DNA of 64,000 bases. Origin: Takakia lepidozioides (Eukaryota > Plantae > Bryophyta). Location of the stretch: assembly GCA_030704615.1 (NCBI GenBank), contig CM060733.1, positions 8,184,001-8,248,000 of the forward strand. The letters are read 5' to 3'. A program made the position numbers and the translations under genes. The notes under the pieces are model-generated. The model was given only the letters and a program-made list of their open reading frames with translations. It had not been told where the DNA came from and made no database searches. Below, in pieces: positions 14,586 through 55,287 of this stretch. How positions within the stretch are numbered: position 1 is the stretch's first letter; every line of letters starts with the position of its first letter.

Positions 14586-16535
14586 GGTAAGACGTGTACT
14601 ACAATGTCATCATCAAATTCGTACTTTCTGATCTACAATAACAATCAGTAGATTTTAGGGACGATTGTTTTTTAAAGAAACTTAGTACATGTGATAGATA
14701 GTGTTTGATATTGAACGTAAGAATTTGCAAATTGTTTGTTTCAAAAATAATAATTGTTGTAAGTTGGACATTGAGGGTGAACTACATATTTAGTGAAAGA
14801 TTGTATCCTCTTAAATGGTATCTCGTTTTAACACTTTAGTTGACAAATAATTTACGACATTGTGAACATATTCAAAAGTTGGGTAAATGAATCTTCAAGA
14901 TGTGTTTAGTGAAATTAAGAGATTTCTCTCTTACGAAGTAAACATGACACAATGTCATGTTTGTATATTAAAAGGTGATGTCTTGGCATCTTCAACTAAT
15001 ATTTTTATATTTATTTATGGACAAAAGAATTAGAAAATTTATGGAAAACAAGATCATAAATTTTTAATGACTTCGTAGCTCCACAGAAAAATAGTTTTAT
15101 AAAATAATGTACATGAGTCGAAGTTGAAAGTATGTGGAAAGTGACTGAAAAAGAAGAGACACGATGACATTGGGATAGAAGGATGACATTAATAATGAAG
15201 AGGCAAACACCTTGAAAGGACATATATAACCCCTAAGTTTGAGGATATACTTTGGGAACCAAGGGCAAAGACTCTTCAATTATTTTAACTTTTTATTTGA
15301 AAAACAAAATCCCTTTTACTAGATCTTAACAGACCTGGCCCTTTGTTACTAAATTAGTTACCATCCCTGCATGTTGCAGCTTAGTAAAAACTTGATGAGG
15401 ACAAATAGCCAGCAGATACTCTTTGTCAAAATGCATAAGCTCCCTTGGATCCAACATGATATAATACTAGACATAGTTAGCTTTCTCTTTTGAGAGAAGT
15501 GATAATATTTATGCACCTGAAGTATGAACCGAAATGTATATGTGTGGTTTTGATCAAGCCTATGCCTTTCTAAATGAATTATATTTTTTAATATTTGATG
15601 GAGATCCATTTAGAGCTGAGTAATGTGAGTTTATGGCAATTCTCCTAATTAGTGAGCTTCAAACGCATGACCGATCCGGCAAGATAATAATGATTAATTA
15701 TTGAAGATGAATTATATTTAAAAAGAACACATACGTCAAGGTTTAAATACGTTTGAGCACTCTCTGGGTGGATTTGCAGCACAATCTTTAACTCAAACCA
15801 ATATCGTGCCGCAAAATATATCAAGATGCCTCTGCTTCTTCTTCATTGATTTGTAAAGTATCACCATCCGACTGCCTATTCTGAAATACAAAATAGCCGG
15901 CTATGAAGATTGTTACAAACAATAGAATCATACGCAATGGACACATGATGTCTCTTTTGATTTGCTCCTTCCTCCTCACGATAAACTCACATTATGTTAG
16001 TCAAATCTCGTTTTCCAATGAGCTGCTCAAGTGTTAATTTGTCATTTTCTTTTTTGTCAAAGAATTCTCTCTAAATACCTCCAAAATGCAATGTATTCCA
16101 GTCACATCTAATTATCATGAAAGAACATTTTTGTCAATTGAAAGTCATTGCAACATGGAGTTTTTTTTCTTTGTTTCCTTTTTCCTTCTTTTTCAGAGTG
16201 GCGTTACTGAAATAATTCTCCATCGGATATGGATGAACAAATACAAAACAAATGTGCTAGAAATATGACAATATAACTTTACAAAGATTAGCAAACAGGA
16301 TGTTGCGAGATATGACTGTATTGGCTATGTCAAGTTATTTTACCACTAGTGTGAAACTAGCTAGGAAATAGCTAGTTTTTACATTATTGACATTTGGGAT
16401 TGGCCCAAGTGTCAATCCAGGGGTCAAGGCAGATTTAGGCCCTGGAGTGGTTATCTTCACGGCAAGCGCGGGAGGCTCATCTTTCTCGAGTTGAGCCTCA
16501 CCGCGCCTAGCTTTCTGGTTCTCTGCAGCTCTGCA

Positions 16536-16835
16536 GCGGACTGACTCAGTCCGGTAGACTGACGAGTGGACTCACCAGCAGACCGGTGATTGACGAGCAG
16601 ACTGACGATTGGCAAGCGGACTGACTCAGTCCGGTAGACCGGCGAGTGGACTCACCAGCAGACTGGCAATTGGCGAGCGGACTGACTCAGTCCGGTAGAT
16701 TGGCGAGTGGACTCACCAGCAGACCGGTGATTGACGAGCAGACTGGCGATTGGCGAGCGGACTGACTCAGTCCGGTAGACTGGCGAGTGGACTCACCAGC
16801 AGACTGGCGACTGACGAGCGGACTGACTGGCGACA
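16536..16835. repeat. Higher-order tandem repeat (80+61 bp) x2 in the 5' terminal region of the retroelement
   Basis: GCGGACTGACT starts at 16536, 16616, 16677, 16757 and 16818. The four full units each contain the palindrome GGACTGACTCAGTCC. Confidence 0.9.
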
Positions 16836-19800
16836 GATTCCAACTATTGGACGGGATGAGAGCATGCTGGGTTAGGCATTGCTTTAGCTTCTCTTCCTCG
16901 TAGTTTTCCACCCTCTCATTAGGCCAAGACCTTTCCGTAGGTGGAGGCAAGAGTCAGTCCGGGTTTGGGCTGGGGTGTCCTTGCAGGTTCAACACCGTGG
17001 AGTTGTTTTTGGTGTGGGGGAGTTGTCGTTCTGATTTCTTGTGTTTGGATCCCCCCCCACACCTACATGCTTGACTGTGCGCCATGTTGGTTTTATGTGG
17101 GCGCTTGCTTTCATAGGGATTAGGCCGGATTTGATCACCGGCCAATCCTAGAGTATGCTGTCGGTGGTGAGGCTGGAGTGATGACCAGCAAGACCACTAG
17201 TGTTTCTTCTATGGTGAGACTGGGTTGATGACCAGCCAACCATAGGAGTTCTTGCGGTGGATGCAGGTGCAGGTGCCCTGAGCCACTGGGATATGACCCT
17301 TAAACTGCAACAGGTGCCCACCCATGTCACTATTAGAATTAGTACTAGAGCCTTATAGTGTCACGTGGGGGAGGTGCACATTGTGAGTGTCATCACGGAG
17401 TTACCCAAGGGTTTTGAGGGGGTTATAGACATGTTCATGACCGGTTGAGTGACAGTTTGTCAACACGGAGGTGTCACTAGTTGCTGGGGAGAGTGCCGGT
17501 TCGAGCACTAGCGATACTAGTGGGTACACGAGACGAGGTGTGCGGTTTCACCTTCACCTCCTGTGTCTTCTATGGAAGGTTCTGATTCGGATTGTGAATC
17601 AGGATGACTCACACCGGCGGTGCAAGTTGTTTCCTTGCCATTGTTGTGGGACACAATGGAGGAGATGTATGGAGCTACCAAGGGGCCACGAAGGTACTCT
17701 GGGGTGGTGGGCACCATTGAGTTGGATGATTGTATCCAAGAGTTTGATAGTTGGTGTGATTTGCAGCAAATGCGCAATCCACAACTATTTACACCTTTCA
17801 TGGCATGGAAGGGGCTGTTTCAGCACCTTGAGGGGCCGCCTATGGATGATTACCATGAGTTCAGGCGGGGGCATGAGGTTGAGATCGAGGAGTGGAGGAT
17901 GTACTGGTCACCCGACTACGTCTCCATTACTAGGGGCACTAGAGCCACAAGGGCAGTGGCTACACCGGCAGCTTCAGCAAGCAGCAGTGGGACTGGTGAT
18001 ACCATAGCTACAACGTCCATCTAAGCTACTGCTGCACCAGCACCAGTGGCGGTGCCTGCCTTCAACCCTGTTGTGGAGTTCTTCGAAGAGTTAAGAGGGA
18101 ACTACCAAGGGGTGAGGACAGAGAAGTTGCGGAGCTTGCAAGAGTTCCAACGGAAGCGACTGAGAGCTTGAGGGAGGCTTTCACTCGCATGAGGCGCTTG
18201 ATAAATGTAACCCAAGGGGTTACGGAAGCTCAGGCAGTCCAATTCTGGTATGGGATATTGGACAAGGAGCTGAGGAGAAGGGTGCGGGATGCAACTCTCC
18301 TACAAGCGGCCCAACCCACCTTAGCAAATGTGTTTTTGCTGGCAGAGCGGATAGAGCTCAACATGGTGGAGGAATGAGTGGTCATGGTGGGATTTGCTAA
18401 GGAGACACCACGGGGTAGTGGTGCTCCTAGCCAACCACTACCTCAACGTGCTCAAGGCAACAAGGGGGTCCAGGTGAAGCCAAGGGAAGGACAGAGAGGA
18501 CCTCAGATGCAGGGGTCTCTCCCTTCATTTGTAGGCCAACAACGGGCAGATGTGGTGTGTTGGACATGTGGAGGACCCCATGTCAAGAAGGATTGCCCAG
18601 AGGGAGGCAAAGGGCTAGCATATGCAGAGCCTGCACAGTTGCAGTGTAGGCATTGTGACAAACACGGGCATGGAGAGACCCAGTGTTATGGTTTGCATCG
18701 TGAGTTGCGCCCAGGCCAGTTCCAAGGGAACAATGGTGGCCGGGGGCGAGGTGGAGCAGCCCAGAGAGGACGAGGTGGCCAGGCACGAGGTGCAGACCAA
18801 GGACAAGCTCAACATGGCCAAGGACATGGGGGTCAGGGTGGTGACCAAGGCATGGCCAACCAGCTTCAGCAGCTAGAGCAGAGGCTCGCTGCCATGGCTA
18901 CAGCTCAGGTGGTACCGGCTCCAAGGCCGGATGGTCCACCTCCTGCTCCTAAGGGAGGAGATATGGGAGGCATGGGATTCATGTGCGGAGCAGCACTACC
19001 ACTAGTGCAGGTGGAGTCTGCTGCAGCCGTGACTCGAGGAGCAGCTGAGCCACGAGGTGCAGAGGTGGAGTTGGATCCACAGCGTGGGAAGGCAAGCCGT
19101 CAGGCTAGGCTTCCTCAGTCATTCACATTGGCGGAGACAGTGTCGACGCCATCCATGGCACCTAGTTCTCGCCCGACTGTTACCGAGGCGGAGGTTACTA
19201 TGCCATTGGGGAGAGCTACACGGGTAGCACCACTACCTAGTGTTGCCAAGGCTACGGCAGCTAGTGTGCTGCTAGGAGCGGCCACATCTGTGTGCCAGGC
19301 TCCATTGTTCTCGGCTACCATGATTGCGACGCCGGGGGTAAGACCAGCTGAGGTGTTCAGGCTAGCAGCTACACTCTGTGAGAGTGGGGAGGTTACTTCA
19401 TCTTCTGCGGAGATAGTGGGAGGTGTAGTGCCGGAGAGATCCTCGGATTTGAGGGTCAAGACTGCCACGGCGGCGCCATGGCAAGCTGCAGCTGCCAGGT
19501 TGATGGAGCTGCCAACTAGGCCAGCCATTGAGCGCGCCATGGTGACACCTGGAGTTGTCTTGTTAGACAACCGGGATGACATTTTCTGTTTGAGTGGACC
19601 GGTAGGCAAGAGGTACCGACCACTGCGGGTCTTGTTGGACTCGGGAGCTTAGCCATTGATGTTGGGGAGAGCTGCTATTGCAGGCTTCGGCCTCACGGAG
19701 GCGGATATGGAGCCTTGTCCTTTCCAGATACAGACGTATCTGGGAGGATCGGAGCAGGCTCGGGGCATGACACGGCGTGAGTTGGCTATCAGACTACGGC

Positions 19801-20342
19801 TGGATCATCCTATAGATGGCTCAGTGATGCGAGCCAAGGCCATTGTGACAGACGCGGTCTCGTACGATGTCCTGGTTGGTGGGGCAGTATTGTACCCCAT
19901 GGGCTTCACCCTGGATTTTTGGGAGGAGTCAGCTTCCTATAGGTGGCAGTCAGGGGAGGGCCGGCGTGTGCAGCTCCCTATGACATTCATAGGAGGAGTT
20001 GCGGTTGCCCAACGGGGCAAGATGCCGACACTGGCAGCATTCACATCTGCAGTGACTTGGCCTGGAGAGTTGCTGGAGGGCAATGCCCATGCAGAGGATG
20101 TGCCACCTCTAGCAGATCAGGATGACATACATGGTACAGCGGAGGTGCCTGCCATGGTTGCTCACACTCCATTGTGGGGTACGAGCAAAGATTTGCAGCA
20201 GGTTGCTGATTGTCGTATGCAACAAGCCTGGGTAGAGGCTTTTGTACCGTCAGGAGAGGAGGAGAGTGCGGGTATTGCACCAGGACCACCTCACTTGTCA
20301 CCATTGGATACCACACCTATTGTGTGGCAGTATCCGGATGAA

Positions 20343-21296
20343 GGCATTTGCCTTCTGGACTTGTTTGGCGGGATCAGCACCGGATTGGCTGCTGTGCTAC
20401 AAGCAGGTGTGCGGGTAAGGCATTACTTGTATGTGGAGAGGGATGAGACTGCACGACGCGTCTCACTACGTCATGTTGCTCAGATGGTGCAGCAGTACCC
20501 TGAGTTGTTGCCGGTGTCTGCAGTTCATGGATATCAGAAGGCCTTGCCAGCAGACATTTCGTTGCTAGGGGCGCAGGATTTGGACCGGGTTGGCTCCATT
20601 GATCTAGTAGTGGCAGGTTGGCCCTGCCAAGGGCATTCATCAGCCGGGCATGGCAATGGATTGCGAGACTCGAGGTCGGGTCTGTTTTGGGAGATGGTGC
20701 GGGTTTTGCGCCACTTGCAGCTTCATCAAGATGTATCTCCAGCATACATCTTGGAGAATGTGCCACTGATGGGCGATTCTCGGGCCAGGGTGATGGCCAG
20801 TGTGCATCAAGTCCGGTCGTGGCTTGGGTCAGCAGTGTTGCTGGATGCAGCTGCAGTGGGGTCACGGGTTCATCGTCCACGGCTATGGTGGACTAACTTG
20901 ATGTCACCCGCACTGCTCAAGCGTGCATTTGATGGGGTGCAGCGGCCAGCACACCTCATAGTGGATAGCATTTTGGACACAAGGAGGCAGTCTCAACGTG
21001 TGAGACACGATGACCGTTCGCCTTTGGCAGTGGTCAACAGGGTGGGTCAACCACGAGCAACACTACCTACACTGCTCAGCTTCCGAGGATCGCATGCTTT
21101 CCGGGATAGTGGACCTGGCCTCATGTGGGATGCTTAGTTGCAGCAGTTAGTGGAGCCTAATGCTGACGAGCATGAGCGGGCAATGGGTTTTACCATTGGT
21201 ACCACGGCGGTGCCGTCTCTTTCTGAGGCATCACGTCGTCAGGTGTTGGGGCAAGCAATGGATCTCAATTGCTTGACCTGGATTATCAGCTTGGCT
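20343..21296 (+). other. C5-cytosine DNA methyltransferase domain (DNMT3-like) embedded in pol
   Basis: Motif I LDLFGGI, II YVERD, IV GWPCQGHS (Cys codon 20625-20627), V DSRSGLF, VI ILENV (ENV at 20754-20762), VIII HRPRLWWTNL, IX-X EHERAMGF..RRQVLGQAM. In frame with the protease; one TAG at 21135. Confidence 0.92.
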
Positions 21297-24200
21297 ATGG
21301 CTGAGCAACATAGAGTGCGGAGTGCACTTCCCTTTACGGTCTCTCTGCCTACCGAGACGGTACAGGCAGCGAGTGGGGGCAAGCCGGTGAGGACCACGGG
21401 GTGTAGACATCCATGGCACACGTGGGAGATGCTCGAGATTCAAAGGGAGTTGGCAGTCAAGGCAGCTGTGATGGATAAGGTTGGGGATTCTTCTCGGGTT
21501 GAGGAGGTTCTCAATGATGAGATGATGGGGCAGGATGAGGCCTTGTCATTGACTGAGCAGGCAAGGAGTACTGCTCAAGAGGTTGCGGCATAGCAACCAC
21601 GGGACGCATCCTCTACCTCTAAGTCTGCTGGACTTAAGGTTGTAGTTACGGAGGACAATTGGGAGCCTGACATTGGACCCATTGTCACCTGAGGAGAGAG
21701 ACGACGTATACGGCGGATCCTGAGGGCTTACAGGAATTGCTTTGCCTTCAGTTTGAAGGACTTGGGAGCACTGAAGGGTCAAGAGATCCGTATTGCGTTG
21801 GCCACTGACACGCCAATCTTTCGGAGACCCTATAGATACAGTGACATGGAGAGGTCTTTGATTCAGATGAGGACTCAAGATCTCTGGGAGGCAGGTTTGG
21901 TGGAGCTCTCTGGTGGAGAGTATGCTTCAGCCACAGTGATGCCAGCCAAGAAGGATGTCTATGGCAATTGGACGGAGAGACGTATATGCGGTGATTACCG
22001 GCCTGTAAATCGTCAGACCAAGTCTGACAGGTATGCCATGCCGACACCAGAGGAAATCCTTGATGCCATTGGGCATGCCAAGGTCTTTAGCACCTTGGAT
22101 TTACGATCCGGATATCACCAGTTGCCGATCAAGGAGGCGGATAAGCAAAGACGGCATTCTGGGGGATCAATGAGCACGGGAAGGATTGCCTATACCAGTG
22201 GCGGTACTTACCATTTGGGCTTAAAAACGCTCCTGCTGAGTTTCAAAGAGTCATGGACAGGATTCTAGCAGGGGTGGAGTTTGCTCGGTGCTACATAGAT
22301 GACATCATCATCTTTAGTGCTACGGTGGAGGAGCATGAGAGACACCTTCAGGGGGTATTTGAGCGCTTGAGGGCGCACGGATTGAAGTTACATCCGGGAA
22401 AGTGCAAGTTTTTCCACAACCAGATTGAGTATCTAGGTCACATGATATATCCTGGAGGATTGGGGGTACAGCAGACTAAGGTAGAGTCCATTGCACAGGT
22501 TCCACGCCCCACGGATGTGAGCCGAGTTCGAGCTTTCATGGGGTTAGCAAACTATTATAGACGGTTTGTTAAGGGATTTAGTGCCATTGCAAAGGCTCTA
22601 ACCAAGCTGACCAAGGTGGACCAGGAGTGGCAGTGGGAAGATGAGCAAGAACAAGCTTTTCAAGAGCTCAAGGCGAGGTTGACCTCGGCGCCCATCTTGA
22701 GACGACCTATCAGGGGGCGTCCTTTTTGCTGCATATAGATTGGAGCATGCTGGGGCTTGGAGCGGTGCTCACACAGGTGGATGATGAGGGAAGAGAGTTC
22801 GTAGTGGCTTATGCTAGCCGCTCAAACAACGCTGCAGAGTCTAAGTATAGCTCATATGAGGGAGAATGCTTAGCTGCAGTGTGGGCCGTGGCACACTTCA
22901 GGTGCTATCTATATGGCAATCTCTTCACCCTTGTCACGGATCACCAACCACTCAAGTGGTTGATGGAGTCAGACAAGCTTATGGGGAAGCTTGCACGGTG
23001 GGCACTCATACTCCAGGAGTATGACTTTCAGGTTGTGCATCGACCAGGTTTGGTCAATCGGGAAGCGGATGGATTGAGTCGCAATCCATGCACGAGCCAA
23101 CAGGATGACACTGGAGCTCGGTGGCATGGTGAGACGGATGAGGAGATGGTGCCGGGATGGCACGCATCTGTATTTTTGTGTATCTTGGCATCGGGAGGTC
23201 AGGTTGGACCTACAACAGGGATGACTGTAGACGGAGTGTCTGAGGACCCTGAGGCTAGTGATGAGCCAGGTGGTGCCAAAGATATACATGAGGATTCAGC
23301 TGTGTTGGACTACCTCCGCACGGGAGACACGGCAGCCACTGTGACTACTAGGGAGAGGGATCGGATCCTGCAACGAGCCAAGAGGTTCAAGTGGGAGGGG
23401 ATATACCTACTTTGAGTGTGGGAGGATGGTCGGGTGAGGATTGTGCCTCACCCCACACAGCGTGCACGGTTAGTGCGGCATGCCCATGAGGAGTTGGGGC
23501 ATTTTGGAGTGCGACGCACTCACAGTTTACTGCAGGGGCAGTATTGGTGGCGTGGTATGCATACAGAGGTGCAACAGTTCGTGGCTAGGTGCATGGTGTG
23601 TGACAGGGTGCGTGCTTCATTCAACGCCCCTACACCACAGTTGTATCCTTTACCAATCATGGGATTGGGCTACAGCTGAAGTCTTGACTTCGCAGGACCG
23701 TTGCCACTGACTATGCGCCACCACAGATATGTGTTGGTGATGGTGGAGCACTTCTCCAAGTGGATTGAGTTGGTTCCATTGCCTGACAAGGCTAGTGATG
23801 GGGCTGCGTATGCATTCTTGGATCGTGTGCTTAGCCGATTTGGTGCTCCAGCTGAGGTACTCACGGACCAAGGGAGAGAGTTCTTGGGGGAGTTTCAGGC
23901 TTTGTGTGATAAAGCCTTGATAGACCACCGCACCACTTCTCGGGATCATCCTGAGGCCGATGGCTTAGCAGAGAGAGTTGTTCAGACGGTGAAGAGGGGT
24001 TTGCGCAAGTATGGCTTGCAGAAGGGACACCTAGGAGATTGGGATCTTCAGGTTCCTTGGTTAGCCATGGGCTACAGGTTCAGCAAACAAGCATCACTTG
24101 CCTCCTTCTCACCATATTTCCTTCTCTTTGGCCGAGAGCCGGATTTGCCTGCAGCCATTCGTAGGGACACTGCTCAAGTCCTTAACCTTGACGATCCGGA

Positions 24201-24582
24201 CGTGTGGGTACGTGCATGTGATCAGCGTGCAGAGTTGTTCAAGAAAATCATGCCCATGGCTTTTGAGAACCTTGCCATTGCACAGCACCGTGATACGTTG
24301 AGGTATGCCACTATACGTGGTGGAGGATATCGTCCTGGGGTTCGGAGGTTTAGCCCTGGTGACTATGTTTATTTGCAGCAGACTGCTCCTACGACTCTGG
24401 ATGTTACTGCAAGGCGTGTTATTCTGAGAGTTTGAGAGGTGTTGCCCTCAGGGGTCCTGATCTTGGAGGGTCGGGATGGCATGACTTGGAAGGACCATGT
24501 GCGTAATTGTGCGCCATGTCACCTTCCCAATGTCGATGGCAGAGTTGACCCAAACTTGGCAGTGGTACCTGCAGGTTTGAGG

Positions 24583-24717
24583 TGCATGCTCTGTGGGTCT
24601 GCCAAAGGGGCAGCCACCATGCTGGTGTGTGATCGATGCTCAAGGGGTTGGCATATGGGATGCTTGACACCACCTCTTGAGAAGGTTCCTGACGGAGATT
24701 GGTTGTGTCCACACTGC
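24583..24717 (+). other. PHD finger at the integrase C-terminus
   Basis: CMLC..MLVCDRC..WHMGCLTPPLEKVPDGDWLCPHC is a complete C4HC3 PHD, in frame with integrase across a TGA at 24433. Confidence 0.92.
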
Positions 24718-25641
24718 TTGGGATAGTGGCAGTGGACATGACTGGAGGCAGCTAACAAGACATGGGAGGCCAAGCTCATAGGAGTCAATACATGAGATCC
24801 TAAGCTCAAGTTCACAGGTTGCAAGACAGCGACTAACGATGGGGCAACTCTTGCACCCGGCCTCTTGATCTATCGAGTTTGAGTGTAGTAGGGATAGTGG
24901 TGGAGGACTTAGTGAGGCTATGGTCACTATCACATCTTGTGGCTACCTGGACTTAGAGGGACCTAAGCACCAGCTAGGGGGGCGATTGTGTGGACTAGTG
25001 ACTGCCATAGTGGGCAGCATAGTGGCAGCCTAGTGACTGACTAGTTATAGCCTAGTGGTTGGACTAGTGGCTGGACTAGTGGTGGACTAGTGATATACTA
25101 GTGTGTGTGGCGTGCACATGTGTTGTGTGGTTTTGGACAGCGATGTAGTTGTGTAGCGATATGTATGCGCACGACAGCTACTTCATCCAACCATCAAGAC
25201 CTTTGGATGGATGAAGAATCTCCTACCACCAGATTTTCGAAGTTGAATTTTTTGCTTTATGAATTGCACCATCCGATACATCGAATTCATGTACTGTCAA
25301 GATCTCTACGGAGAACAAGCTCTCCAAAATAAACACAAAATATGCGCCCCACTCATCATTAGCCCTCCCTTTTTAGGCGAAAAAAACCTAAAAGCACCAA
25401 AAACCAAGCGCCTGCAACACCCCTTTGCAATTTTCAGGGGCAAAAATTAAAAAAAACGCGGAAACGGGGCGGGCTCTGGCCAGCTGGTGCTAGAAAGCAC
25501 CATGAATAGAAATCCGCTCCTCCAAACTGGAATACTGCCTCATTTGCACACTGTAAGTAGCACACTGCTCTCAAAAGATATTTGAGACGTGCTCTGTCTT
25601 CTACTAAAGCATATCTCTGATTGGATAGAAATATTGATCGA

Positions 25642-26370
25642 AGTGTTGTTAACCGTACATCACATTGACAAGAAGCCTGGGACGACAGAGGGAATCTTGA
25701 AGCTTTATGGTAGTCATTCAGGACTTGGATCATGGACTACATCATCGTTGGGCTAAGAATTTTCAAAACTACCCTCCACCTGAGTTTCGCACATGAAAAT
25801 AAAACAATGCAATGATTAAAAGTGAAGTTCTTCTTGCCGAGAGAAGGAAAGGCCAAGGAGACCCCGGCCTCTCTTGCAAAGCTAACCAGCAAAGACAGGT
25901 TAGTTTGAGTAGTCTCCCGGTCTCGCATATGCTCACTACTTGTCAAATCCCTTATAATGCTAACAAAAATCCCAGCATCTTCAAAACTCCACGGAACTAG
26001 AGCTCCATCAAAAGCCTGAGTGTGCTGCGCTTTCTCGTGGCCCGCGAGCTCCGGTCTACACCAACCTCATCACCTGTCTTTCCAGGGAAAAACATCTTGA
26101 GTAGCCCTTGTAGGAGGGTGGGAGAAAAGTATTTGTATCTTTGGTGCAGTAGGGAGCACACCTGGCTCCACACACACACAGACAGTGTTGTTAACCGCAC
26201 ATCACATTGACGACGACAGAGGGAATCTAGTGAAGCTTTATGGTAGTCATTCAGGACTTGGATCATGGACTACATCATCGTTGGGCTAAGAATTTTCAAA
26301 ACTACCCTCCACTTGAGTTTCTCACATGAAAATAAAACAATACAAAGATTAAAAGTGAAGTTCTTCTTGC
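25642..26370. repeat. ~190-bp direct repeats (25642-25837 and 26184-26370)
   Basis: Near-identical AGTGTTGTTAACC...GTGAAGTTCTTCTTGC copies with small indels. Confidence 0.9.
25838..26165 (-). pseudogene. UPF2 (regulator of nonsense transcripts 2) MIF4G-1 fragment
   Basis: QVCSLLHQRYKYFSPTLLQGLLKMFFPGKTG..RKRSTLRLLMEL*..LTSSEHMRDRETTQTNLSLLVSFARE matches the plant UPF2 N-terminal region. Stop and frameshifts present. Confidence 0.75.
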
Positions 26371-31490: not shown

Positions 31491-34146
31491 CTCTATTTCA
31501 CCAACACCCACCTAATGGACAATGCCTGCCTCACCAGACTTTGCCAGCGAGATCATCTGCTCAAAGACAAAATGCCTGGAAGAATCTCTCTGTCAGGGGC
31601 TAGTTTTGTTAGCTGGTTTTTCTGACCTAGAGGTGATCAACCGGGAACAGTAACGAGTGAACACTACTCTCGGCAACCACTGATCCTTCACGCATGCGGG
31701 CATAAGAAATAAGAGAAACACATGCTTCACTCTACATTCATCGTCATATACTACATACATATATTGGACCTTCGTAGGAATAAATCCAGACTGATAACAG
31801 CACAATGTGAAAAAACCTATTCGTACAGTGCAAAGTGGGAAAAATCTAATCCCACTGCCACTTTCCCACAAAAAAAGTAGGGCACATAAACGAAGCTCAA
31901 CGCATGCTGCCAACTGGGTCTGCCTGTGCAATCTTACAACACTTTAGTTCCAAAGCCTCAATGAAAGTTTGCTACAGACTACATGAGGATCAATGCAGAA
32001 ACATAATCATCAACACCTTATAGATCATTGAAGTTGTAAGAATGTCCACCGTTAGCATTGCATTTCACTTTGGAAAAGAAATGGAAAATCGTGTATGAAA
32101 AGTAGAGTACCCTTGACGGTACACAGCAGTATAGTGGAGAAAAGTGCTCGCCCACGACTACGACAGGCAACCTTCTAGCAATATTGCTCTTCATTGATCA
32201 ACTCCCGGGCATATCCACTCCGATCTTGCCCTAGATATACCATAACTGCAGCAGATGATATCCACTGTCTATTGAGCTATACATTCGCCCTCGACTGACT
32301 GGTCTGTCTTTTGTCGCCTCATGCCTTGATTTCTCCCTTCATATCAGAGCCTTGGATCAGCGTGGCATCTGTCGACAGATGCAACAATGTAGACCCACTG
32401 AGGCAACGAATCACAATCACAACACAGTAATTGTGAGCGCATATTATTATAATTACGACTCGAGATGTCGTAACTCAAATTGGCGGAGACATATCTCCAA
32501 ACAGCCAACTTGGGAGTGGAAGTAATCAGTGTAGAACATCACGGAAAACCCAGTGATACTTCCCCCAACACCAACAAACAGCCGAGATGGAGCCCAATAA
32601 CTCCAATTGGAAAAGCTCAAGATTTGAATTACAAAACTCCGAGCCGACGATCACTCCAAACGAAAATGCAGACCTTGGCGCATACTCTTAAGAAACATTA
32701 CGAGAAAACGTGCTCGGAGAGAAGCCGGAAGAGTGCAGTAGTCGTCGACAAGCACAGTTCCAATACCCGGAGCCACTTGAGAAGCTGTCCAAGCCCAAGA
32801 TGAGACCCTAACTGGTGCGACAAATGGCAGCAAGCCAGCAGCAGGCCTGCAGAGTTCCAGGTGTCGATCCCCATTGTTTGTGCCTTGTCTTGTGCATCGC
32901 TCCACGCCCCACGCCACGTGCTATGCCTCCGCCTCCGCCACAGCGCTGCCGTGACGCCATTCCGTAAGTACATATTGGCACAACACTGTGCACGCCCGCT
33001 TCTCTCCCTCACCCACGTGCCATTCAAATCTTCTCACCTTCTCACTTAGGGTTCCGTTTCTCCCAAGCCTGCACCTGGTTTTGTTCATCCTTGTGACTTT
33101 GCATAGGGTTCCATGTTCCCTCCCCTGGACCACACACTTTCTAGAGCTCCATATCTCCTCTTTGGTAGGGAGATTGTTCTTCATGTGCAGAGCAGACAGG
33201 CAAACTTAGACTAGATGGCCTTTGGAGGAGGTTTGGTGATGGGTTTCTTGGAATTTTTCCTGAGGTTGTTTGGTCTCCTTCAGCCTTACAAACAAATGCC
33301 TCCTCCAAAGAAGGGTGAAGATATACTCGTCACGTACGTACAAGGGAGTCCATGTTAACATTTGGGCAGTTGTGGGATTGCCATCGTCTTCTCATCCCCT
33401 TTTTCTTTGCTCTTTGTTGCACGTTGGTACGTATTGTCCCGGGCGATGGCCTGAGTAAAGTTCAATTTTGTAGATGGGTTTCTGATGCAGCTATGGCAGT
33501 TCAACACTGAGGTTGTGATGTAACATACAGGTGGTTTGGTCCGCGGGATCAATTGTTGCAAGGGTGCTATTGTACTTGTTGCTCTTTTTAGTGGCCCCCG
33601 CTCTTCTCTCCATTCCTCCCATAATGCATGAGCCTTACATAAATGACTATTGATGGAGAACATCTCTCTTGTTAATATTTTCTCTATTTTCGAGGAGGAG
33701 AAACACTCTAGAACAAACACCATAAATGGACATATGATTATTCAACCTCTTGGAGTTCATAGGCATCTTGGCTAGGATATGACTTGAAGATTTAGTTGCT
33801 CCCAAATTGCAGTGATATTTGCTAGATACATATCTCAATTCTTAAGGTATATCATTTTCTCTCTTGTGGGCATGGGGAAATAGAAAGTTTATTGCGATGC
33901 ATGAGCAACAATCCATGGACAACCAACTCAAAAGGCGAATGTGCATTCATAGTGGATGGATCATGAGGAGCTCTTTGGAACATTTCCTTCATGAAAAATT
34001 TATTATATTCCCACCTAGAAGCATACAGATCAATAAGAGGGAGGGAACGGTACCATAGAGGTTAAAATTCCACATTCCCTCACTCCTCAGACAGAATGAG
34101 GGAAGTTTACATTTTCATATCCTTAAGATTAATTACAGGGGGATAA

Positions 34147-34315
34147 CCAACATGTAGCCCAGTGGTAATGGGCACATACCACGTTGGATGTGGTTGTAGG
34201 TTCAAACCACGGTCTGGTGTGTCATGAAGGTGTCAACCTTTCAGCTGGAAGGCAGTAGCCCTTGTGGTGAAGAGACACCATAAGTTACGCTTCCTTCGGG
34301 AGGCGTCATACTTTC
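34147..34315 (+). mobile_element. tRNA-derived SINE (~170 bp)
   Basis: A-box TAGCCCAGTGG, B-box GGTTCAAACC, ~17-bp TSD TTAATTACAG(G/A)GGATAA (34129-34146 and 34316-34332). Absent from the paralogous site near 41340. Confidence 0.8.
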
Positions 34316-34602
34316 TTAATTACAGAGGATAAACTGTTACATTTTATACCTTTTTTTGGGGATGAATTGCTTATTCCATACCTAGCAGTGGATACGTGGT
34401 AAGTTTTTTATGATTCTTGAAGGCATAACTACCATTCTATTACCTGTATGAAAATGGAAGTAATGGTCATATAATTTGAACATCACCAGAAGCGATGAGT
34501 ATTTGTTTTCTACAAAACATAATTGTAAAGTAGTCCATTCCACCTTGAAAGAGGTTATGAATTGAATTTATACATCAAAACTGTATCAACGACTCTTCCT
34601 AC

Positions 34603-35099
34603 CAGTGTTGTACCGGTATATAGGGTATTGTCTGGTCTGTGCACATGTATATGCACTGGTATTAGATACCAGACCTAGTCTGGTATCATTTGGGAGAATA
34701 CTTGGTCTTATACCAGGACCAGGCTGATATCAGTTTTTTCATACCAGCCACAATACTAGTATTCCTCCCCACGTATTCTTCTATTACTTTGGTATGTGTA
34801 ATATATTAATTTATTGTCTACATATTTGTACTTAAATATATTTATTTCTTTATTATATTGTATTTGTTTCCACTTGATACTTGTTATTTGATAAACTTGC
34901 TATTCAATGATGGCTTTGGAATGATACCAGAATTGATATCTCATACCAGCTGGTACTGTGGTCATGATACTCATACTCATACCAGTCTCAAAACAATACA
35001 TCTATTATTATATAAACCAAACTGGTATGATTTTTTTTCGATATTTCGGGTACCAAGACAAGTTTGGTATGTCCTAAAACTGATACCAGTACAAAACTG
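34603..35099. mobile_element. Non-autonomous hAT-type element (MITE), 497 bp
   Basis: 8-bp TSD CTTCCTAC (34595-34602 and 35100-35107), imperfect 17-bp TIRs CAGTGTTGTACCGGTAT / ATACCAGTACAAAACTG, subterminal TACCAG repeats. Absent from the paralogous site near 41615. Confidence 0.85.
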
Positions 35100-38000
35100 C
35101 TTCCTACAAGGTGGAAATATACCTTTTATTCCATATCCAAAAAGATAAAGATACCCACTACTTATACACAATGTCTTTAACTACACTCGACACCCAGTAG
35201 TCCCACTTGGATTTCAATTGGCCGTACCTCAATCAAACTTTAGTTGAACCCTTCACTTCTGAAGACCCCAATCTCCGTGTCATATTGAAGGTTCTTCGGA
35301 CCGGAGCTCATGTACGAATTCTTTTGTGTTCAACTAAAAAAGCTAGTAATCCTAATACTCAAAATCCTTAGGAGTTCAGATCGCGATATTTTCATTGTCC
35401 ATCTCTTTAACCGCTTTAGCGACTTACAAATCTACATTCTATGCACATGAAATTAAGATAAAATATTGTCAAGAGCTTTGTGATTGATCCCCCAAAAATG
35501 CGACTACAGAAAACACATATTCTTGCAATAGTACCTCCACCCCCCACAAAACATTTCCACATAGTTAGCAATTAAGAGCACTCACCACATTATTTCAGAT
35601 ATTTTCGACAAAGAATTGTTTGAGTATATGCTTTCCAAAATCACAACCCTACCAAAACCACAATGCACCCATTTTCCCTTGCAAATACAAGTAGCGCACT
35701 TTTTTTCTCATCCCTCCTTGAAGGGGAAACACCAACACGAGTGGTCACCCTAAAAATGGAGATAATATGGTGAAAAGGATGTGAGTTGTCAATCACAGCT
35801 CCTGACAGAGACCATGGTGTTCACCACTCTCATCCTGAAAATAAACGTTGATCAATTTGTAACATCATTTTGATAGGAAGTTTTAGATTGACATGTACTT
35901 CTTCCTTTTCTGTCTTAAAATCCTTCTTGGAATGTTTAATGAAAAAAGGTAGTACCAAAAAGTACTTTGTACTTTTGTACTTTTTGCTTTTCTGTCTTGA
36001 CATCATTCTTAGAGTTGTGTTCAGTAGCGTCTTTGTTAAGTTTCTTTCCAAATGGCTTGTGTGCCAACAGACATGGACTCTACAAAAGACATCTAGACAT
36101 AATATTCAAAGCTATGTCATCCCTTGATAATAACCCCTCCATGTAACCAGATATAGTACTTGCAGAGTGATATATCTAGAAAAAGCTTTGACAGTACTTG
36201 GGTCATGTAACACAATTCCAAAACCACTTGACAGAGGCCTACTATTGAGAGTAGAAACATCACAACCTAAATTAACTTCAAAAGAAGCCATAGAAAGATT
36301 GCAGAAGACAATCCATAGTGATTAGTTCTTATTCACAAATACAACTATTGTAGAGCTGAAGATGCACATCAGTCTATTCCTTAAATCAAGAATCTGTTGC
36401 AGCTACCTCCACGATGGAACAGAACTCAGACTTGATGTCCACGATCGTGACCTTGCATCCCAAAGTCTTCAAGTTCTTGCATAAGCTAATGAAGGTTGAA
36501 GCTTTGGCATACTTCTTCAACCAACATGAGCCACTTATTTTCATTTTCTCGAATCGCTAGTGTCCAAATCCATGTCTGTTTCTGAAATCCTGATATTCTC
36601 TGAGCTACAGGGATAAACTGAACCCTCCTAATCCTCCATCCTTGAGAGCATCACCTACCCATTCATCCCTCGCTGCTCAATATCATGTCCAGAAGTTCAA
36701 CCTCCCTCTTGATTGCATCTTTCAATTTCGTTTGGCACATGTGGAAAATGGTTGTCTCGAAGTCAATCAAGGAGGCCTAGTCCACTTTGCTCCCAAAACA
36801 ACATATTGCTCGCAGATCATTGTGCATGACTCCATGAGTTCCGCGCTCTGCAAGTGTACAAGTCTGCTAGGTCACTATTTGGCTCACCTATGTGAGATAA
36901 GATGATACAACCCACATGCTCGTCCCATGCTGACCCAACCTCCACCACCTTTGGACCAACACTCTCTTGCGGGTTCTGTACCCCATGGATGTCGAGTGTT
37001 CTTATGTGGCCTCAATCATATCTATACCAGTCACATTTGCTTTGACCAATTGCTTATGATACACTGCGGATTTGAACAATAATCATATTATCCGCTAGCG
37101 TCTTGATGTCCCATCTCGTAACTTCAGCTTTGGATATTGGAGTACTACAGTAGCTGTCACCATGCATCGTACTATCAGATTTTCAAGTATATGATTTTTA
37201 ATGTCAATGAAGAGTAGTAATTTTGGAGGAATGTTTTTGACGACCAAAGATATAGTTCGATATCCAAATGGATATTTGTAGGATTGGGTGTCTCAGATTT
37301 TATGTAACATGGCAGTTTCTGCAGTCACCTCCCTCCATGGTTTTACCCATATTTGTCCAACAACTCAATATTTCATCTAAATTTATATGGTATAGGGTTT
37401 CTAACTACAATAAGTATGTGTACCAATTGTTAGATTGCATGTATCAGAGAGCCATGGACTTTTAAAGTTGATTACTGTGGAGTGCAAATGTTACACATAA
37501 AATCTTATGGACTGAAAAAACATCATGTACACCACAAAGGAAAACACACTAGGGATGTCATTTTTAAATCCAACCCAACTACACTTTTATATGGACTAGT
37601 TATCTTAGGAATTGAGAACTATGGACTATTTTGCACATAAAAACATGTTGATTTGCTCTAGTCCATAGCATCTTATGTTTTGGGTTCTTGAGGTGTCGTC
37701 TTTTACTAAAAATGCATACAAACCTATAATCTAGAGGTGTCAGGTGGTATATGGACAAGTGGTTGTAAACTCTAGATTTTGACGTCTAAATATTTTTTCA
37801 AATTAAAGATTAAAATATCTAGTAAAAAATGTTTTCAATATTTGAGGATGGACTCTTTACTAAAACTGTTAGGTATACTACTATCTATCTTTCAAAAATA
37901 AACTGAAAGCAATAAACTCAACCAAAAAAATAAAAAATAAAAAAATCCATGGACTTCCAGTGGACTCAACATGTGCTGCTTTTGATCCACCCAATCCTGC

Positions 38001-40481: not shown

Positions 40482-42290
40482 ACAAATGCCTCCTCCAAAG
40501 AAGGGTGAAGATATACTCGTCACGCACGTACAAAGGATTCCATGTAACCCTCGGGCAGTTGCGGGCTTGCTATCGCCTTCTCTTCCCTTTTACTTTGCTC
40601 TTTTGTTGCACGTTGGTACGTATCATCTGGGGCGATGGCATGAGATGAGAAATTCTATTCGAGATCAGCTAGAGTAAAGTTCAATCTTGTAGATGGAGCT
40701 ATGACAGTTCAACACTGAGATTGTGATGTGACATACAAGTGTTTTGGTCCATGGGATCAATTGTTGCAAGTGTGCTATTGTAATTGTTGCTCTTTTTAGT
40801 GGCCCACTCTTCTCTCCATTCCTCCCATAATGCACATGAGCCCTATGCAAAATGGAGAGCATCTCTCTTTTGTTAATATTTTCTCTCTTTTCGAGAAGGA
40901 GAAACACTCTCGAACAAACTCCATAAATGGACATATGATTATTCAACCTGTTGGAATTAGTAGGCATCTTGGCTAGGGTATGATATTGAAGGTTTAGTTG
41001 ATCCCAAGTTGCGCTAGATGCATATCTCAACTCTTAAGGTATTTCATTTTCTCTTTTGTGGGCATGGGAAAATAGACAGTTTTCTGCGATGCATGAGCAA
41101 CATTCCATGGACGCAATGCAATCAGAGGCCAACCAACTCAAAGGCGACTGCTCATTCATAATGGAGGGGTCATGAGGAGCTTTTTGGAACATTTCCTTCC
41201 TAAGAAATTCATTATATTCCCAGCTAAAAGCATACATATCAATAAGAGGGAGGGCACCGTACCATAGATGTTAAATTTTTTCACATTCCCTCACTCTTCA
41301 GATGGAATGAAGGAAGTTTACATTTGATATCCTTAGACAAATTATAGAGGATAAACTCCAATATTTTCTACCTTTTCTTTGGGGTGAATTGCTTATTCTA
41401 CACCTAGCAGTGGATACATGAATTGCATTTTTTATGTTTCTTCAAGGCATACTACCATTTTATCACATGTATGAAAAATGGAAATAACGGTCCTATTGCA
41501 CATCACCAAAAGCGACGAGCATTTGTTTTCAACAATTTTTTTTATAAAATAGTCCATTTTCCACCTTGAAAGAGGTTATGAATTGAATTTATACATCAAA
41601 CTGCGTCAACGTCTCTTCTTACATGGTGAAATGTACCTTTTATTCCATATCCAAAGAGGTAAAGCTACCACTATTTTACAACATACATGATGTATTCAAC
41701 TACATTCCACACCCAATAGTCCCACTTGGAATTCAATTGGCCGTACCTCAACCAAATTTTAGTTGAACCCTTCACTTCTGAAGACCCCAATCGCTGCGTC
41801 ATATTGTTCTTCGGACCGGAGCCCATATACGAGTTCCTTTGTGGACATGAGATAGATTAATGTGGGATGAGAATCTGATGTGGTAAAAATGTCCCTCTAA
41901 AAAAAGCTAGCATCAAAATCCTTAGAAGTTCATATCGCGATATTTTCATTGTCCATCTCTTTAACCGCTTTAGCGAGCAAATCTACATTCTATGCACATG
42001 AAATTAAGATAAAGTATTGTCAAGAGCTTTGTAACTGATCCCCTAAAAAAACGACTACAGAAAATGCGTCTGCCCGCAATAGTACCTCCACCCCCACAAA
42101 ACATTGCCACGTAGTTAGCAATTAAGAGCACACACCACATTATTTCAGATATTTTCGACAAAGAATTGTTTGAGTATATACCTTCAAAACATCACAACCC
42201 CACCAATACCACAAATGCACCCATTTGCCCTTGCAAATACAAGCGTATTTTTTTTCTCATCCCTCCTTAAAGGGGAAACAGGAACAAGTG
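40482..42290. repeat. Local duplication, copy B (left part; interrupted by the MULE)
   Basis: Aligns to 33292-35741 without the SINE and MITE, and resumes at 61734. Confidence 0.9.
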
Positions 42291-42873
42291 GCCTCTCATT
42301 TTAAGATAATAGGGTCTTCAATGGGCACGTGCGATGTGGCCGGTGGGCCCCGCGCACGGACGCCCGGCTCCCCAGCACCCGCCCGCCCCGCCCGCCCCGC
42401 CCGCCGCTGCGCGCGGTCGCCCAACCGCGGGCGCGCCTGCAGCAACCGCGCCCGCGCCCCCGTCCGCCGCGCGGCCAGTCCCCCGCCCATGAGTCCGCTA
42501 CCCTCCAGTCTGCCAGTCCGATGCTGGCCAGTCGGCTGCCCAGCAGTCTGCCAGTCTGCCAGTCTGCCCGCCAGTCCAGTGCTGGCCAGTCCGCTGCCCA
42601 GCAGAGTGCCAGTCCGCCAGTCTGCCCGCCAGTCTGCTGGCCAGTCCCCTGCCATCCAGTCCGCTGACGGCGCAGGATCGCCACCGTCCATTCCCATAAC
42701 CCATCCGAGCCCTCCATTTTTAGGGCTGCAATTCAAACCTGCATCCCTGCCGCCTGCCACTTGCCAGCAGCCGCGAACGTGCGCACTATTCTCCTGGCAC
42801 GTTGTCGATCGTGTCTTGTACTATGGCGCGTTTCTTGCATGTTCAGAAGCGTGTCCTTTGTACTGTATAGGGC

Positions 42874-45800: not shown

Positions 45801-46214
45801 TTCATGGAAAGACATCCTCCGGACGACTTCCCCTACGACGAGGCACCTCTGGAGGTCTCAGCCTCATTGGAACAAGAATTCGCGGACATACTTCGCATTG
45901 TAGGTGATGACAAATACCTGGAGGCACATGCCCGATCTGCTCTTCATATGTGCAGAGGGCAGCTCGTTGATATCCTGGCAAAAAGTGCGGCTGGAATGTT
46001 GCACCCTGCGGCAGCGAAGGCTTTCCGTCCTCTGAACGACAACAACAACATGTCTCTGAAAAGGAGACGAGATTTCGTGGAGGCCTGGAAAACCCGGCCT
46101 AGGGTTTTGTGGAGAACCAGCAAGAGGGTGTCTGCACCTGCACCTGCAGCACATATATACTCGAAAATTCGCAAGTTTTCAGGTCGTGTAGATGTCACGA
46201 AGAAGACAATATAA
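42874..46214 (+). pseudogene. MULE-type DDE transposase with SWIM zinc finger (multi-exon, disrupted)
   Basis: IPWDRVGDFV, KRGCQCCF, APYISEEL, GIQTPW, DATFGTN, VFDEWLNGIPV, FIVDD, LCLWHVRKAW, TNASIEAYH and SWIM CTCPWAMKGNLCKH. Several stops and frameshifts. Confidence 0.88.
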
Positions 46215-46357
46215 GTCTGCAATGCCTCGAAAAGAGACAAGGTTTCACGTCGTGTAGGTGTCACGGAGAAGACAATATAAGTCTGCAATTCCTCAAAAAG
46301 AGACAAGGTTTCATGTCGTGTAGGTGTCACGAAGAAGACAATATAAGTCTGCAATTC
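46183..46357. repeat. 66-bp tandem repeat, ~2.7 copies
   Basis: GTCGTGTAG starts at 46183, 46249 and 46315, between the convergent MULE genes. Confidence 0.9.
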
Positions 46358-46902
46358 TTCTGGTAGCATTGTCCCTTTCTGAAATACAAGTCCGCAATGG
46401 ACTAATGCACAGTCTCCCAATGGACTCCTCCAGTCTCCCAACTGACTCCCACACAGTCTCCCAAGCATAGTCTCCCAACGGACTCACGCACAGTCTCCCA
46501 ACAGAGTCACAGTCAACAGATTGCGAGCGCCAGTAAGCTAGTCTGCTGGTCAGTCTGCTGCCCACTCCAAAAGTCTACTCACCACACTTCCACCTCATCC
46601 CTGCAATTTATGCCAATCCAGCGTCCCAGCGGACTCATGGACATGGTGCCTCCCAGACTAGGTACCAGACCCAGCAGTCCTAGCCTCGGCAGCGTACTGC
46701 TCGCACATTCAAGCTCAGCAGACTCGGGTGCACAGTGCATGGAAAAATTGACACCATTGTGTCCATTGAGTTTAGTGACAACATTACAAAACATGCCAGC
46801 ACCCACAGTACACAAAAGTGTTCATCACCACTGGAATAGTAAGCGAAAAGACTTGCATTTTTTATTTCGGTACATAGACTTCACAGGACAAGTACATCAT
46901 AC

Positions 46903-47958: not shown

Positions 47959-48142
47959 AACAGACTGACGTCAACATGGTACCAAACACTCTATAGGCTG
48001 AACAATTCATCAGACTGACAAGACTAACCACAACAGACAATGATGAAACCAGCAGCAGACTGACCAGCGTGCAGACTGACCACAACAGAGCGCAAAGCAC
48101 TTAACGACAAAGACAGACGAGGAGACTGAGCACAGTACTCAC

Positions 48143-55285: not shown

Positions 55286-55287
55286 CT

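Follow-up and report, generated by a model that had tools for sequence, protein, structure and literature searches.

A Ty3/Gypsy retrotransposon of Takakia lepidozioides with a DNMT3-like methyltransferase domain in its Gag-protease frame

Related elements and enzymes

Plants silence retrotransposons through cytosine methylation. Retrotransposons that themselves carry a C5-cytosine methyltransferase have been described in Symbiodinium and Klebsormidium (PMC5890265), as was noted in a preliminary description of the locus studied here. KnitGypsy-Dnmt3 of Klebsormidium nitens is reported to have the domains of a Gypsy element plus a DNMT3-like domain that lacks introns, is not permuted and is under purifying selection, together with DIRS-like terminal repeats in the order A1-ORFs-B1-A2-B2, while the host DNMT3 gene of this alga is multi-exonic (PMC5890265). 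The Symbiodinium elements SymbioDIRS-Dnmt3 and SymbioLINE-Dnmt belong to other retroelement classes and are independent captures according to the same paper. In yeast, the SymbioDIRS-Dnmt3 enzymes showed de novo CG methylation; the Klebsormidium enzyme was inactive in the single published test, as was human DNMT3B, and the authors regarded this outcome as inconclusive (PMC5890265).

The locus lies in a window of 64,000 nucleotides of the Takakia lepidozioides genome (contig CM060733.1, positions 8,184,001 to 8,248,000). By domain content and arrangement, its element is of the kind described as KnitGypsy-Dnmt3, a comparison made by description, with no Klebsormidium-named protein among the named relatives found. 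All features listed above for KnitGypsy-Dnmt3 are shared, the DIRS-like repeats being seen in the relatives L037, L041, L056 and L057. However, the present family ranges over mosses, liverworts and Closterium, and chlorophytes have a second arrangement. PMC5890265 places the methyltransferase domain in the Pol ORF, whereas here it ends the Gag-protease frame; a PHD finger is unmentioned in the main text or three supplements of that paper, and its passages on the element describe neither a palindromic junction nor short and long forms. With the Symbiodinium elements the likeness is confined to a retrotransposon-borne C5-methyltransferase, as the window element has a DDE integrase. A literature search, with most subscription journals and Repbase reports outside its coverage, found no description of land-plant members, in line with the preliminary description, to which no characterised land-plant family was known.

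Structure and decay of the Takakia element

The element extends from 16328 to 25176 on the forward strand of the window, as do all features given below, and is flanked by a 4-bp target duplication, GCTA (16324..16327, where read depth rises, and 25177..25180). Its domain order is gag-protease-DNMT3-like-RT-RNaseH-integrase-PHD. The protease-RT-RNaseH-integrase order, the DDE integrase, the TG...CA ends and the short target duplication identify it as Ty3/Gypsy. A tyrosine-recombinase element of the DIRS/Ngaro type was excluded: PF00665 and PF17921 are present and no recombinase family matched in the frames scanned.

The 5' end (16328..16512), starting with TGTC, holds the start of an A-type terminal repeat. 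This segment is marked out by read joints from 25176-25178 to 16328 in three runs and by the loose ends that four runs show at 16512; relatives start with TGTCA. It is followed by a leader stretch with 61/80-bp tandem repeats (16513..17007), of lower depth and with loose ends at 16512 and 17007, which is apparently a variant of this copy. Translation places gag at 17659..19544, with two CCHC-like knuckles, an RG-rich tract, stops and a frameshift near 18156; it aligns with the N-terminal part of the Marchantia proteins P0002 and P0003, and a Pfam scan gave no family match for it. The aspartic protease (19545..19955, by translation) bears LLDSGA at 19632-19649, and the relatives P0021, P0023, P0031 and P0035 have an Asp_protease_2 match at the homologous place. 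Downstream of the methyltransferase domain lie reverse transcriptase (21693..22737; YIDD; PF00078, E 3.4e-24), with frameshifts near 22146 and 22720 recognised as indels relative to other copies, RNase H (22738..23130; PF17917, E 7.8e-35) and a DDE integrase with an H2C2 zinc domain (23416..24530; PF17921, E 1e-17; PF00665, E 1.3e-12; stops at 23413, 23677 and 24433). The C-terminus of the integrase is a C4HC3 PHD finger (24577..24723; PF00628, E 1e-11). A polypurine-tract-like CTAGGGGGGCGA (24974..24985), found also before B1 in L037 and L056, stands immediately 5' of a B-type terminal repeat (24986..25176) that ends in CACGACA and agrees, over its final 40 bases, with the B ends of about 20 loci at 82-88%. 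An Rfam scan of 16000-26000 gave no match. Neither the PHD finger nor the absence of an LTR pair had been noticed in the preliminary description.

The window copy is dead. Its protease-to-RT frame contains four stops (19650, 21135, 21591 and 21690). The stop at 21135, inside the methyltransferase domain, is private to this copy: it is absent in >99% of run X1 depth and has a homologue in 0/65 other loci. Run X8 had zero coverage over the domain.

The methyltransferase domain

The domain (~20334..21305) matches PF00145 with E 8.9e-13 (Pfam), has no introns and shares one frame with the protease and the start of RT. It carries the catalytic Cys and Glu and the RxR, and its motifs run linearly: LFGG (I), WPCQ (IV), ENV (VI), HRPR (VIII), ERAMGF (IX) and LGQAM (X). 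The preliminary description had proposed an intronless C5-methyltransferase with PCQ, ENV and RxR, a non-permuted order and a resemblance to DNMT3, and all three points hold. Its placement of the domain in frame between protease and RT stands as regards the frame, but not the four interrupting stops.

DNMT3A was the closest solved structure in a single-sequence search (E 2e-10) and led the profile search against solved structures (2e-19, versus 3e-7 for DRM2, 3e-6 for M.HhaI and 2e-5 for DNMT2); it was also the top structural match of the predicted fold (pLDDT 75; E 3.6e-16, TMq ~0.6). ESM Atlas returned generic C5-methylase clusters only. On sequence and modelled fold, the domain is thus DNMT3-like and not DRM-like, where nearness to DNMT3 over DRM, DNMT2 and bacterial enzymes refers to scores against solved structures and not to a tree. 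The DNMT3-type catalytic domain is shared with PpDNMT3a/b and MpDNMT3b. Host plant DNMT3s bear a C-terminal DUF3444 (PMC6453930) and DRMs are permuted, whereas the window domain is intronless and linear, and no DUF3444 was matched by Pfam in this element or the relatives scanned. A host plant DNMT3 gene was excluded on this absence and on the embedding of the domain in a retroelement frame.

Distribution and abundance of the family

The preliminary description had called for further copies with the same order, and the domain is present at 81 other loci, a few of which are the same insertion counted twice; L081 (viral contigs, one weak 36% match) is excluded from all counts. Among loci reaching far enough, a protease lies upstream in 61/67 and RT downstream in 60/68, and 16/81 show the complete gag-to-PHD order. 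The arrangement recurs in named proteins of Marchantia polymorpha, M. paleacea, Calypogeia, Sphagnum and Closterium, while in chlorophyte relatives the domain falls between RNase H and integrase. The annotation of M. polymorpha includes unbroken Gag-PR-DNMT frames (for instance, Mp4g09160 and Mp8g17980). Judged from these named proteins, such elements are present in land plants. Prokaryote genomes yielded one contig, L082, within a cyanobacterial metagenome assembly, which we read as eukaryotic carry-over.

In run X1, summed contig depth reached 0.6-1.3 million over the element and 52-105 in most flanking bins; runs X5 and X6 covered the element and hardly its flanks. We take the family to be very abundant, in terms of summed contig depth only and not of copy number.

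These data support the domain as a family trait. That a single neutral event captured a host DNMT3, or that the locus is an assembly chimera or algal contamination, is highly improbable and mainly refuted, even though the copy shows decay (of the 19 changes unique to its domain, 15 alter the protein), the methyltransferase tree was built without a host DNMT3 sequence, and the contigs crossing the element ends overlap by 26-27 bases, below the 31-base threshold. Opposed to it are the arrangement common to the 81 loci and the Marchantia, Calypogeia, Sphagnum and Closterium proteins, the intact target duplication and the bryophyte-like flanking genes (an F-box gene is 80% identical to Ceratodon). 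Moreover, the six Marchantia Mp gene numbers matched do not include the host gene MpDNMT3b (Mp5g09290).

A conserved stop behind the methyltransferase

At the place homologous to the stop at 21591 (21591..21599, TAG CAA CCA), 42/43 bryophyte-type loci and all five more distant ones likewise have a stop. The unbroken loci L063 and L082 contain exactly two in-frame ORFs, of 1369 or 1162 aa and then 1047 aa, separated by TAG CAG TTA or TAG CAA TCA. The methyltransferase therefore ends the Gag-protease frame, and the conserved stop separates Gag-PR-DNMT from RT. As this stop is a conserved feature of the family, the domain cannot be counted simply as part of Pol, and the preliminary view of a continuous pol polyprotein enclosing it has to be given up. 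In the distant relatives P0176 and P0044, the domain continues into RT without a stop.

The window context fits TAG-CAR-YYA, and CAR YYA is found also in 4/5 distant loci. The commonest context in bryophyte-type loci is CAA CCC (37/43), which departs from CAR YYA in its last base, and 13/43 have TAA as the stop. UAG followed by CAR YYA is the signal for readthrough in TMV, and plant reporters that carry it gave 6-32% readthrough (PMC2754532). By this analogy Pol likely needs stop readthrough, perhaps at roughly 5-30%, and a separate Pol transcript may be an alternative; in Candida Tca2, the junction by itself gave no readthrough (PMC2194720). In-frame stops are shared with TMV, SIRE1, Tca2 and MuLV as described in these two sources, but the stops of the three retroelements lie behind gag and the present one lies behind protease and methyltransferase.

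We put a probability of roughly 55% on the following reading: the window holds a dead copy, of the short form, from an abundant bryophyte Ty3/Gypsy family whose Gag-PR-DNMT frame ends in a leaky stop, and whose enzyme is packaged at coat-protein level and methylates new cDNA before insertion. The first frame would yield Gag, protease and the DNMT3-like enzyme, and readthrough would yield RT-RNaseH-integrase-PHD. With the domain ahead of the likely leaky stop in the Gag frame, the enzyme would enter the particles in bulk, together with the coat protein. The protease would then free it from the polyprotein, and the enzyme, if active, would methylate the element's cDNA prior to insertion.

Selection and phylogeny

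Across 159 full-length relatives, the catalytic Cys is kept in 157, the ENV Glu in all, one RxR arginine in 155 and the other in 158; the motif IV Pro is replaced by Glu in 68. Between the window copy and bryophyte-type loci, dN/dS was 0.10 for the methyltransferase, 0.08-0.11 for RT and 0.10 for integrase, and the linkers flanking the methyltransferase gave 0.27 and 0.64; the methyltransferase value within the distant clade was 0.10. Such between-lineage values are rough because dS is near saturation (35/62 methyltransferase pairs saturated), and 14 near-duplicate loci (>=97% identical) were left out. Among the decayed bryophyte-type loci, dN/dS was 0.57-0.61 for the methyltransferase, 0.29-0.52 for RT and 0.44-0.59 for protease and integrase, which we read as decay after insertion. 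The comparison across copies that the preliminary description had suggested thus supports purifying selection on the domain between lineages, as far as these sequence estimates go.

The methyltransferase and RT trees each separate the two architectures (SH-aLRT 98 and 96), so the domain appears to have travelled with the element. The RT tree came from a quick search with 28 DNMT-after-RNaseH proteins, 12 DNA copies and a single long-branch outgroup. The methyltransferase tree had no outgroup and no host DNMT3.

The conservation of the catalytic residues bears on a different role, in which the domain acts on element RNA, or binds nucleic acid or has a structural function within the particle, DNA methylation being secondary or absent. 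Co-production with Gag, beside nucleocapsid-like knuckles, would suit such a role, as would the variable motif IV and the negative yeast result for the Klebsormidium enzyme (PMC5890265). Nevertheless, all DNA-type catalytic residues are kept across lineages 36-50% identical, and the match to DNMT3 is far better than that to DNMT2 (E 2e-19 vs 2e-5), and we consider this role decidedly unlikely.

Terminal repeats and integration

The window copy has no LTR pair and no direct repeat at the element ends; it is a short form (A-ORFs-B). Split repeats A-ORFs-B-A-B occur in L037, L041, L056 and L057 and in L008, where they are interrupted by the contig end. They contain a palindromic junction, GACA-GC-TGTC; in the form CA-nn-T(G/A)TCA it is present in L008, L037, L041, L056, L063, L069 and L082, with GC as the spacer in 5/7. 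Read joints in the runs of the host also show the B-to-A junction, at a depth of ~5000 in X1, which is no measure of the share of long forms since the shorter side spans just 27 letters (43 in X5). Leftover leader or purine-tract bases at the A2/B2 joint of L056 and L073/L074 are as expected of joined cDNA ends. The target duplication is an exact 4 bp in five of ten other loci with both ends and has one mismatch in three more. No TGG-type primer site was found directly behind A1 in the loci examined.

There is a precedent in foamy virus, whose integrase cleaves a palindromic junction between two LTRs (PMC1180852). The viral 2-LTR junction likewise joins a CA end and a TG end in a palindrome, whereas here the predicted cleavage junction is stored within the integrated element, inside the split repeats. 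By analogy, the integrase likely cuts the GACA-GC-TGTC palindrome. In this scheme B-GC-A would serve as the 'LTR', plus strands would be primed from the purine tract that precedes B, and a cut at GACA^GC-TGTC would leave two ends, each with a 3' CA and a 5' overhang of 2 bases. The long copies (A-ORFs-B-GC-A-B) would act as templates, and short copies (A-ORFs-B), lacking the second A, would be dead ends. B ahead of the first A was found at none of the 24 listed 5' ends, though a simple circle-cutting model predicts such copies.

A broader reading is tentative, and we hold it to be possible rather than probable. It envisages an ancient Gypsy lineage of green plants, reaching from chlorophytes to mosses and present in Marchantia, that supplies every particle with its own DNMT3 by encoding it ahead of a leaky stop, pre-methylates each new copy in this way and integrates through the internal palindrome cut instead of through cDNA ends. 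Such cutting would deprive most offspring of the second repeat and leave them sterile, making the element self-marking and self-limiting. If so, a self-marking retrotransposon exists in a model liverwort.

Target of the enzyme

A PHD finger closes the integrase in both the bryophyte-type and the chlorophyte architecture. It could serve an enzyme that is active mainly on chromosomal DNA, reached through Gag-level nuclear import or integrase-PHD tethering, with the insertion region or competing elements as targets. Gag-level quantity, which far exceeds the need of one cDNA per particle, would also fit, and an effect on insertion-site chromatin was raised by de Mendoza et al. (PMC5890265). However, the domain itself comes with no partner for chromatin targeting (DUF3444 was not found by Pfam), and the Klebsormidium methylome is reported to be plant-like despite such elements (PMC5890265). 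We consider a mainly chromosomal target rather unlikely. The preferred cDNA target is favoured by the chlorophyte relatives, in which the place of the domain, after RNase H and before integrase, points to action on the cDNA complex.

The retention of an element-borne methyltransferase across algae and bryophytes raises the question, posed by de Mendoza et al., of what the enzyme does for the element. Unbroken copies in M. polymorpha, a model with methylation mutants, make it testable. The family is also a natural pairing of a DDE integrase with DIRS-like split repeats, with a precise substrate prediction, and its genes add DNMT3-like sequences to bryophyte annotations, a contribution so far unrecognised. 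The CpG ratio at silent sites was 0.24-0.41 in the window element and L063, 0.61-0.77 in L082 and L069, and 0.59-0.74 in a neighbour without the methyltransferase; depletion is thus no clear mark.

Structure and decay of the window copy

The first element of the window, a Ty3/Gypsy copy at 16328-25176, begins with TGTC and ends with GACA, with GCTA abutting it at either end. Contigs from public runs heap up over 16328-25178 and fall to background level outside. The adjoining F-box gene matches a Ceratodon protein at 80% identity and Marchantia at 69%, making a moss the likely host. Repeat self-comparison and translation of the copy revealed no LTR pair within it. Translation of 17401-24800 gave a single frame, at 18378 to ~22140, that extends from the end of gag through the protease (LLDSGA) and a C5-methyltransferase domain into the beginning of the reverse transcriptase (RT). 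The preliminary description of a full methyltransferase in frame between protease and RT holds as to the shared frame, but this frame is broken by stops at 19650, 21135, 21591 and 21690. With these stops and frameshifts near 18156, 22146 and 22720, the window copy is dead.

The PF00145 scan proposed earlier gave a match (E 8.9e-13), and Pfam further assigned RT, RNase H, the core and the zinc domain of the integrase and, at E 1e-11, a PHD finger. The enzyme had been called linear and DNMT3-like, and both points were confirmed: its motif order is linear, and DNMT3A ranked top among solved structures by both sequence and profile, followed by DNMT3C/3B and then DRM2 and bacterial enzymes. DNMT3A was also the top fold match of the AlphaFold model (pLDDT 75, pTM 0.79; residues 208-268 unsure).

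Relative to one public sequencing run, the window methyltransferase has 19 sites unlike at least 90% of the depth, and the stop at 21135 belongs to these private changes. Fifteen are protein-altering, and C-to-T or G-to-A substitutions account for 13 (8 CHG, 3 CG and 2 CHH), a pattern that would fit neutral decay of a host-methylated copy. At 16513-17007 the window copy carries 61/80-bp tandem repeats with a weak resemblance to the LTR-like repeats near 42630; other copies diverge from it at 16512 and continue with bases starting ATGGCGCCGTAG, which may represent a tRNA primer site.

Family range and domain arrangement

Protein relatives at 57-78% identity were found in Marchantia polymorpha (many genes), M. 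paleacea, Calypogeia fissa and Sphagnum, bearing out a land-plant family that carries the domain; those at 36-41% include Closterium, Haematococcus and others, with one gappy Sphagnum model at 41%. A profile search returned 456 clusters at E <= 1e-30. Among 309 proteins, the methyltransferase precedes RT in 14, follows gag/protease with nothing after it in 45, follows RT/RNase H in 65, precedes integrase only in 19 and stands alone in 166. Named members of the first type are bryophytes and Closterium, while those of the type following RNase H are Scenedesmus, Hariotina and Haematococcus, most members being nameless. In chlorophyte-type proteins (P0039, P0042, P0046, P0246 and ~80 others) the domain sits between RNase H and integrase, a position from which it appears that the methyltransferase either moved or was captured twice among related Gypsy lineages.

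Rather than being confined to this copy, the domain is present at 81 other DNA loci (80 metagenome contigs and one prokaryote-assembly contig). The order protease-methyltransferase-RT recurs there as anticipated, with protease upstream in 61 of the 67 loci with enough upstream DNA, RT downstream in 60 of 68 and the whole order in 16 of 81. A single branch parts the two arrangements in both the RT-RNase H tree, a quick search, and the methyltransferase tree (SH-aLRT 96 and 98, respectively), both trees lacking a usable root and host DNMT3. In the methyltransferase tree, the window copy clusters with Marchantia, Calypogeia and the main locus set (support 99).

Family members also occur in prokaryote metagenome-assembled genomes, namely the locus L082 (1-9285), with a 127-base terminal overlap, in a cyanobacterial assembly and the Obscuribacterales protein P0083. 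These are likely a carry-over of the eukaryotic family.

Selection on the methyltransferase

Of 159 full-length relatives, 157 retain the catalytic Cys and all retain the ENV Glu, and the two RxR arginines are conserved in 155 and 158 of them; the motif IV Pro is replaced by Glu (WECQ) in 68, with the catalytic cysteine retained. Nei-Gojobori dN/dS between the window copy and 62 non-redundant bryophyte-type loci was 0.10 for the methyltransferase (35 of the 62 pairs saturated). RT gave 0.08-0.11, integrase 0.10 and protease 0.18, and the linkers flanking the methyltransferase gave 0.27 and 0.64. Inside the distant clade the methyltransferase value was again 0.10 (5 of 10 pairs saturated). Neutral evolution, considered in the preliminary description, was not borne out between lineages, the domain behaving like RT and integrase. 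A neutral capture or an artefact is highly improbable. Among the bryophyte-type loci, the methyltransferase ratio was 0.57-0.61 and that of RT 0.29-0.52, with integrase and protease at 0.44-0.59, and 60 of 67 methyltransferase copies contain at least one stop. Low ratios between lineages, together with high ratios and stops among loci, indicate that the domain was conserved in active lineages and that the majority of genomic copies are decaying.

A conserved stop ahead of the reverse transcriptase

We compared 48 non-redundant loci holding both methyltransferase and RT (43 bryophyte-type and 5 more distant). A stop lies 84 bases ahead of the RT anchor in 42 of the 43 bryophyte-type loci (29 TAG, 13 TAA), with CAA CCC directly after it in 37; all five distant loci have a stop, four with TAG-CAR-YYA, and the window context is TAG CAA CCA. 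At the unbroken loci L063 and L082 the conserved stop separates two in-frame ORFs, the first ending past the methyltransferase and the second encoding RT, RNase H, integrase and PHD. By protein comparison, some distant relatives have no stop between methyltransferase and RT. The readthrough signal of TMV is CAR YYA following UAG (PMC2754532), and by analogy the stop may be read through, although an in-frame stop need not act in this way, as in Tca2 (PMC2194720). If it is, the methyltransferase would be made several-fold over RT and integrase. Its Gag-linked position ahead of a conserved stop adds to what is known of such elements.

Terminal repeats and their junction

Locus self-comparison showed the split terminal repeats in the order A1-ORFs-B1-A2-B2 at four loci (L037, L041, L056 and L057), and likewise at L008 as far as the contig end. 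This arrangement agrees with the legend of Fig. 4c in PMC5890265, which gives the Klebsormidium nitens element KnitGypsy-Dnmt3 DIRS-like repeats and Gypsy-like domains. Sixteen independent insertions end after B1, as in the window. The B1-A2 junction reads CA-nn-TG, mostly as the palindrome GACA-GC-TGTC, and is present in the distant loci L069 and L082 too; the joint was seen in three runs of host material. A purine tract lies immediately 5' of B1. Three loci have an exact A2-B2 joint; in L056 and L073/L074 the joint includes extra leader/purine-tract bases. Among ten loci with both ends, the target duplication is an exact 4 bp in five, has one mismatch in three and is absent in two.

Foamy virus integrase cuts 2-LTR junctions (PMC1180852). 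In a similar scheme, B-GC-A would be the working terminal repeat and the integrase would cut the GACA-GC-TGTC palindrome, so that short copies ending after B1 would be dead ends. B was found ahead of A1 in none of 24 listed 5' ends, which counts against a simple version of junction cutting. Alternatively, the short forms could arise through B1-B2 recombination.

Described elements and predicted function

The observation of a methyltransferase-bearing Gypsy element is real, and its kind is already known from Klebsormidium, where de Mendoza et al. (2018) described DNMT3-bearing Gypsy elements under purifying selection (PMC5890265). The words 'Marchantia' and 'PHD' are absent from the main text and three supplements of that paper, the single one to use the term KnitGypsy within the literature searched. 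In the accessible portions, a 2025 survey only restates the existence of such elements in streptophytes and dinoflagellates (PMC12344493), and a Marchantia sperm preprint mentions just the host gene MpDNMT3b. No description of bryophyte or chlorophyte members was found in the literature searched, most subscription journals lying outside its reach. The sequences add to the known kind a range spanning land plants, Closterium and chlorophytes with two domain positions, a PHD on the integrase, and a palindromic junction within split repeats.

We favor, with a probability of roughly 0.55, self-methylation of the cDNA by the element's predicted enzyme. The Symbiodinium DIRS enzymes methylated CG, and the Klebsormidium enzyme was without activity in yeast, a result its authors deem inconclusive (PMC5890265). 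Action of the predicted enzyme on chromosomal DNA seems unlikely, and an RNA-directed or structural role of the domain slightly less likely still.

Neighboring repeats

The second Gypsy element, at 54478-61724, lacks a methyltransferase. Its two LTRs form an ordinary pair (98-99% identical), a TGGTATCAGAGC primer site lies near 55288, and its RT is 33-43% identical to that of the first element. Inverted copies of its LTR-like repeats occur at 42291-42701. The region 42291-54553 also holds tandem-repeat tracts (46160-46360, 48814-49943 and 51138-51312) and unexplained open frames, e.g. 45294-46211. A dispersed duplication links 33484-35639 and 40692-42189 at ~87-94% identity and 6.5-7.2 kb spacing.
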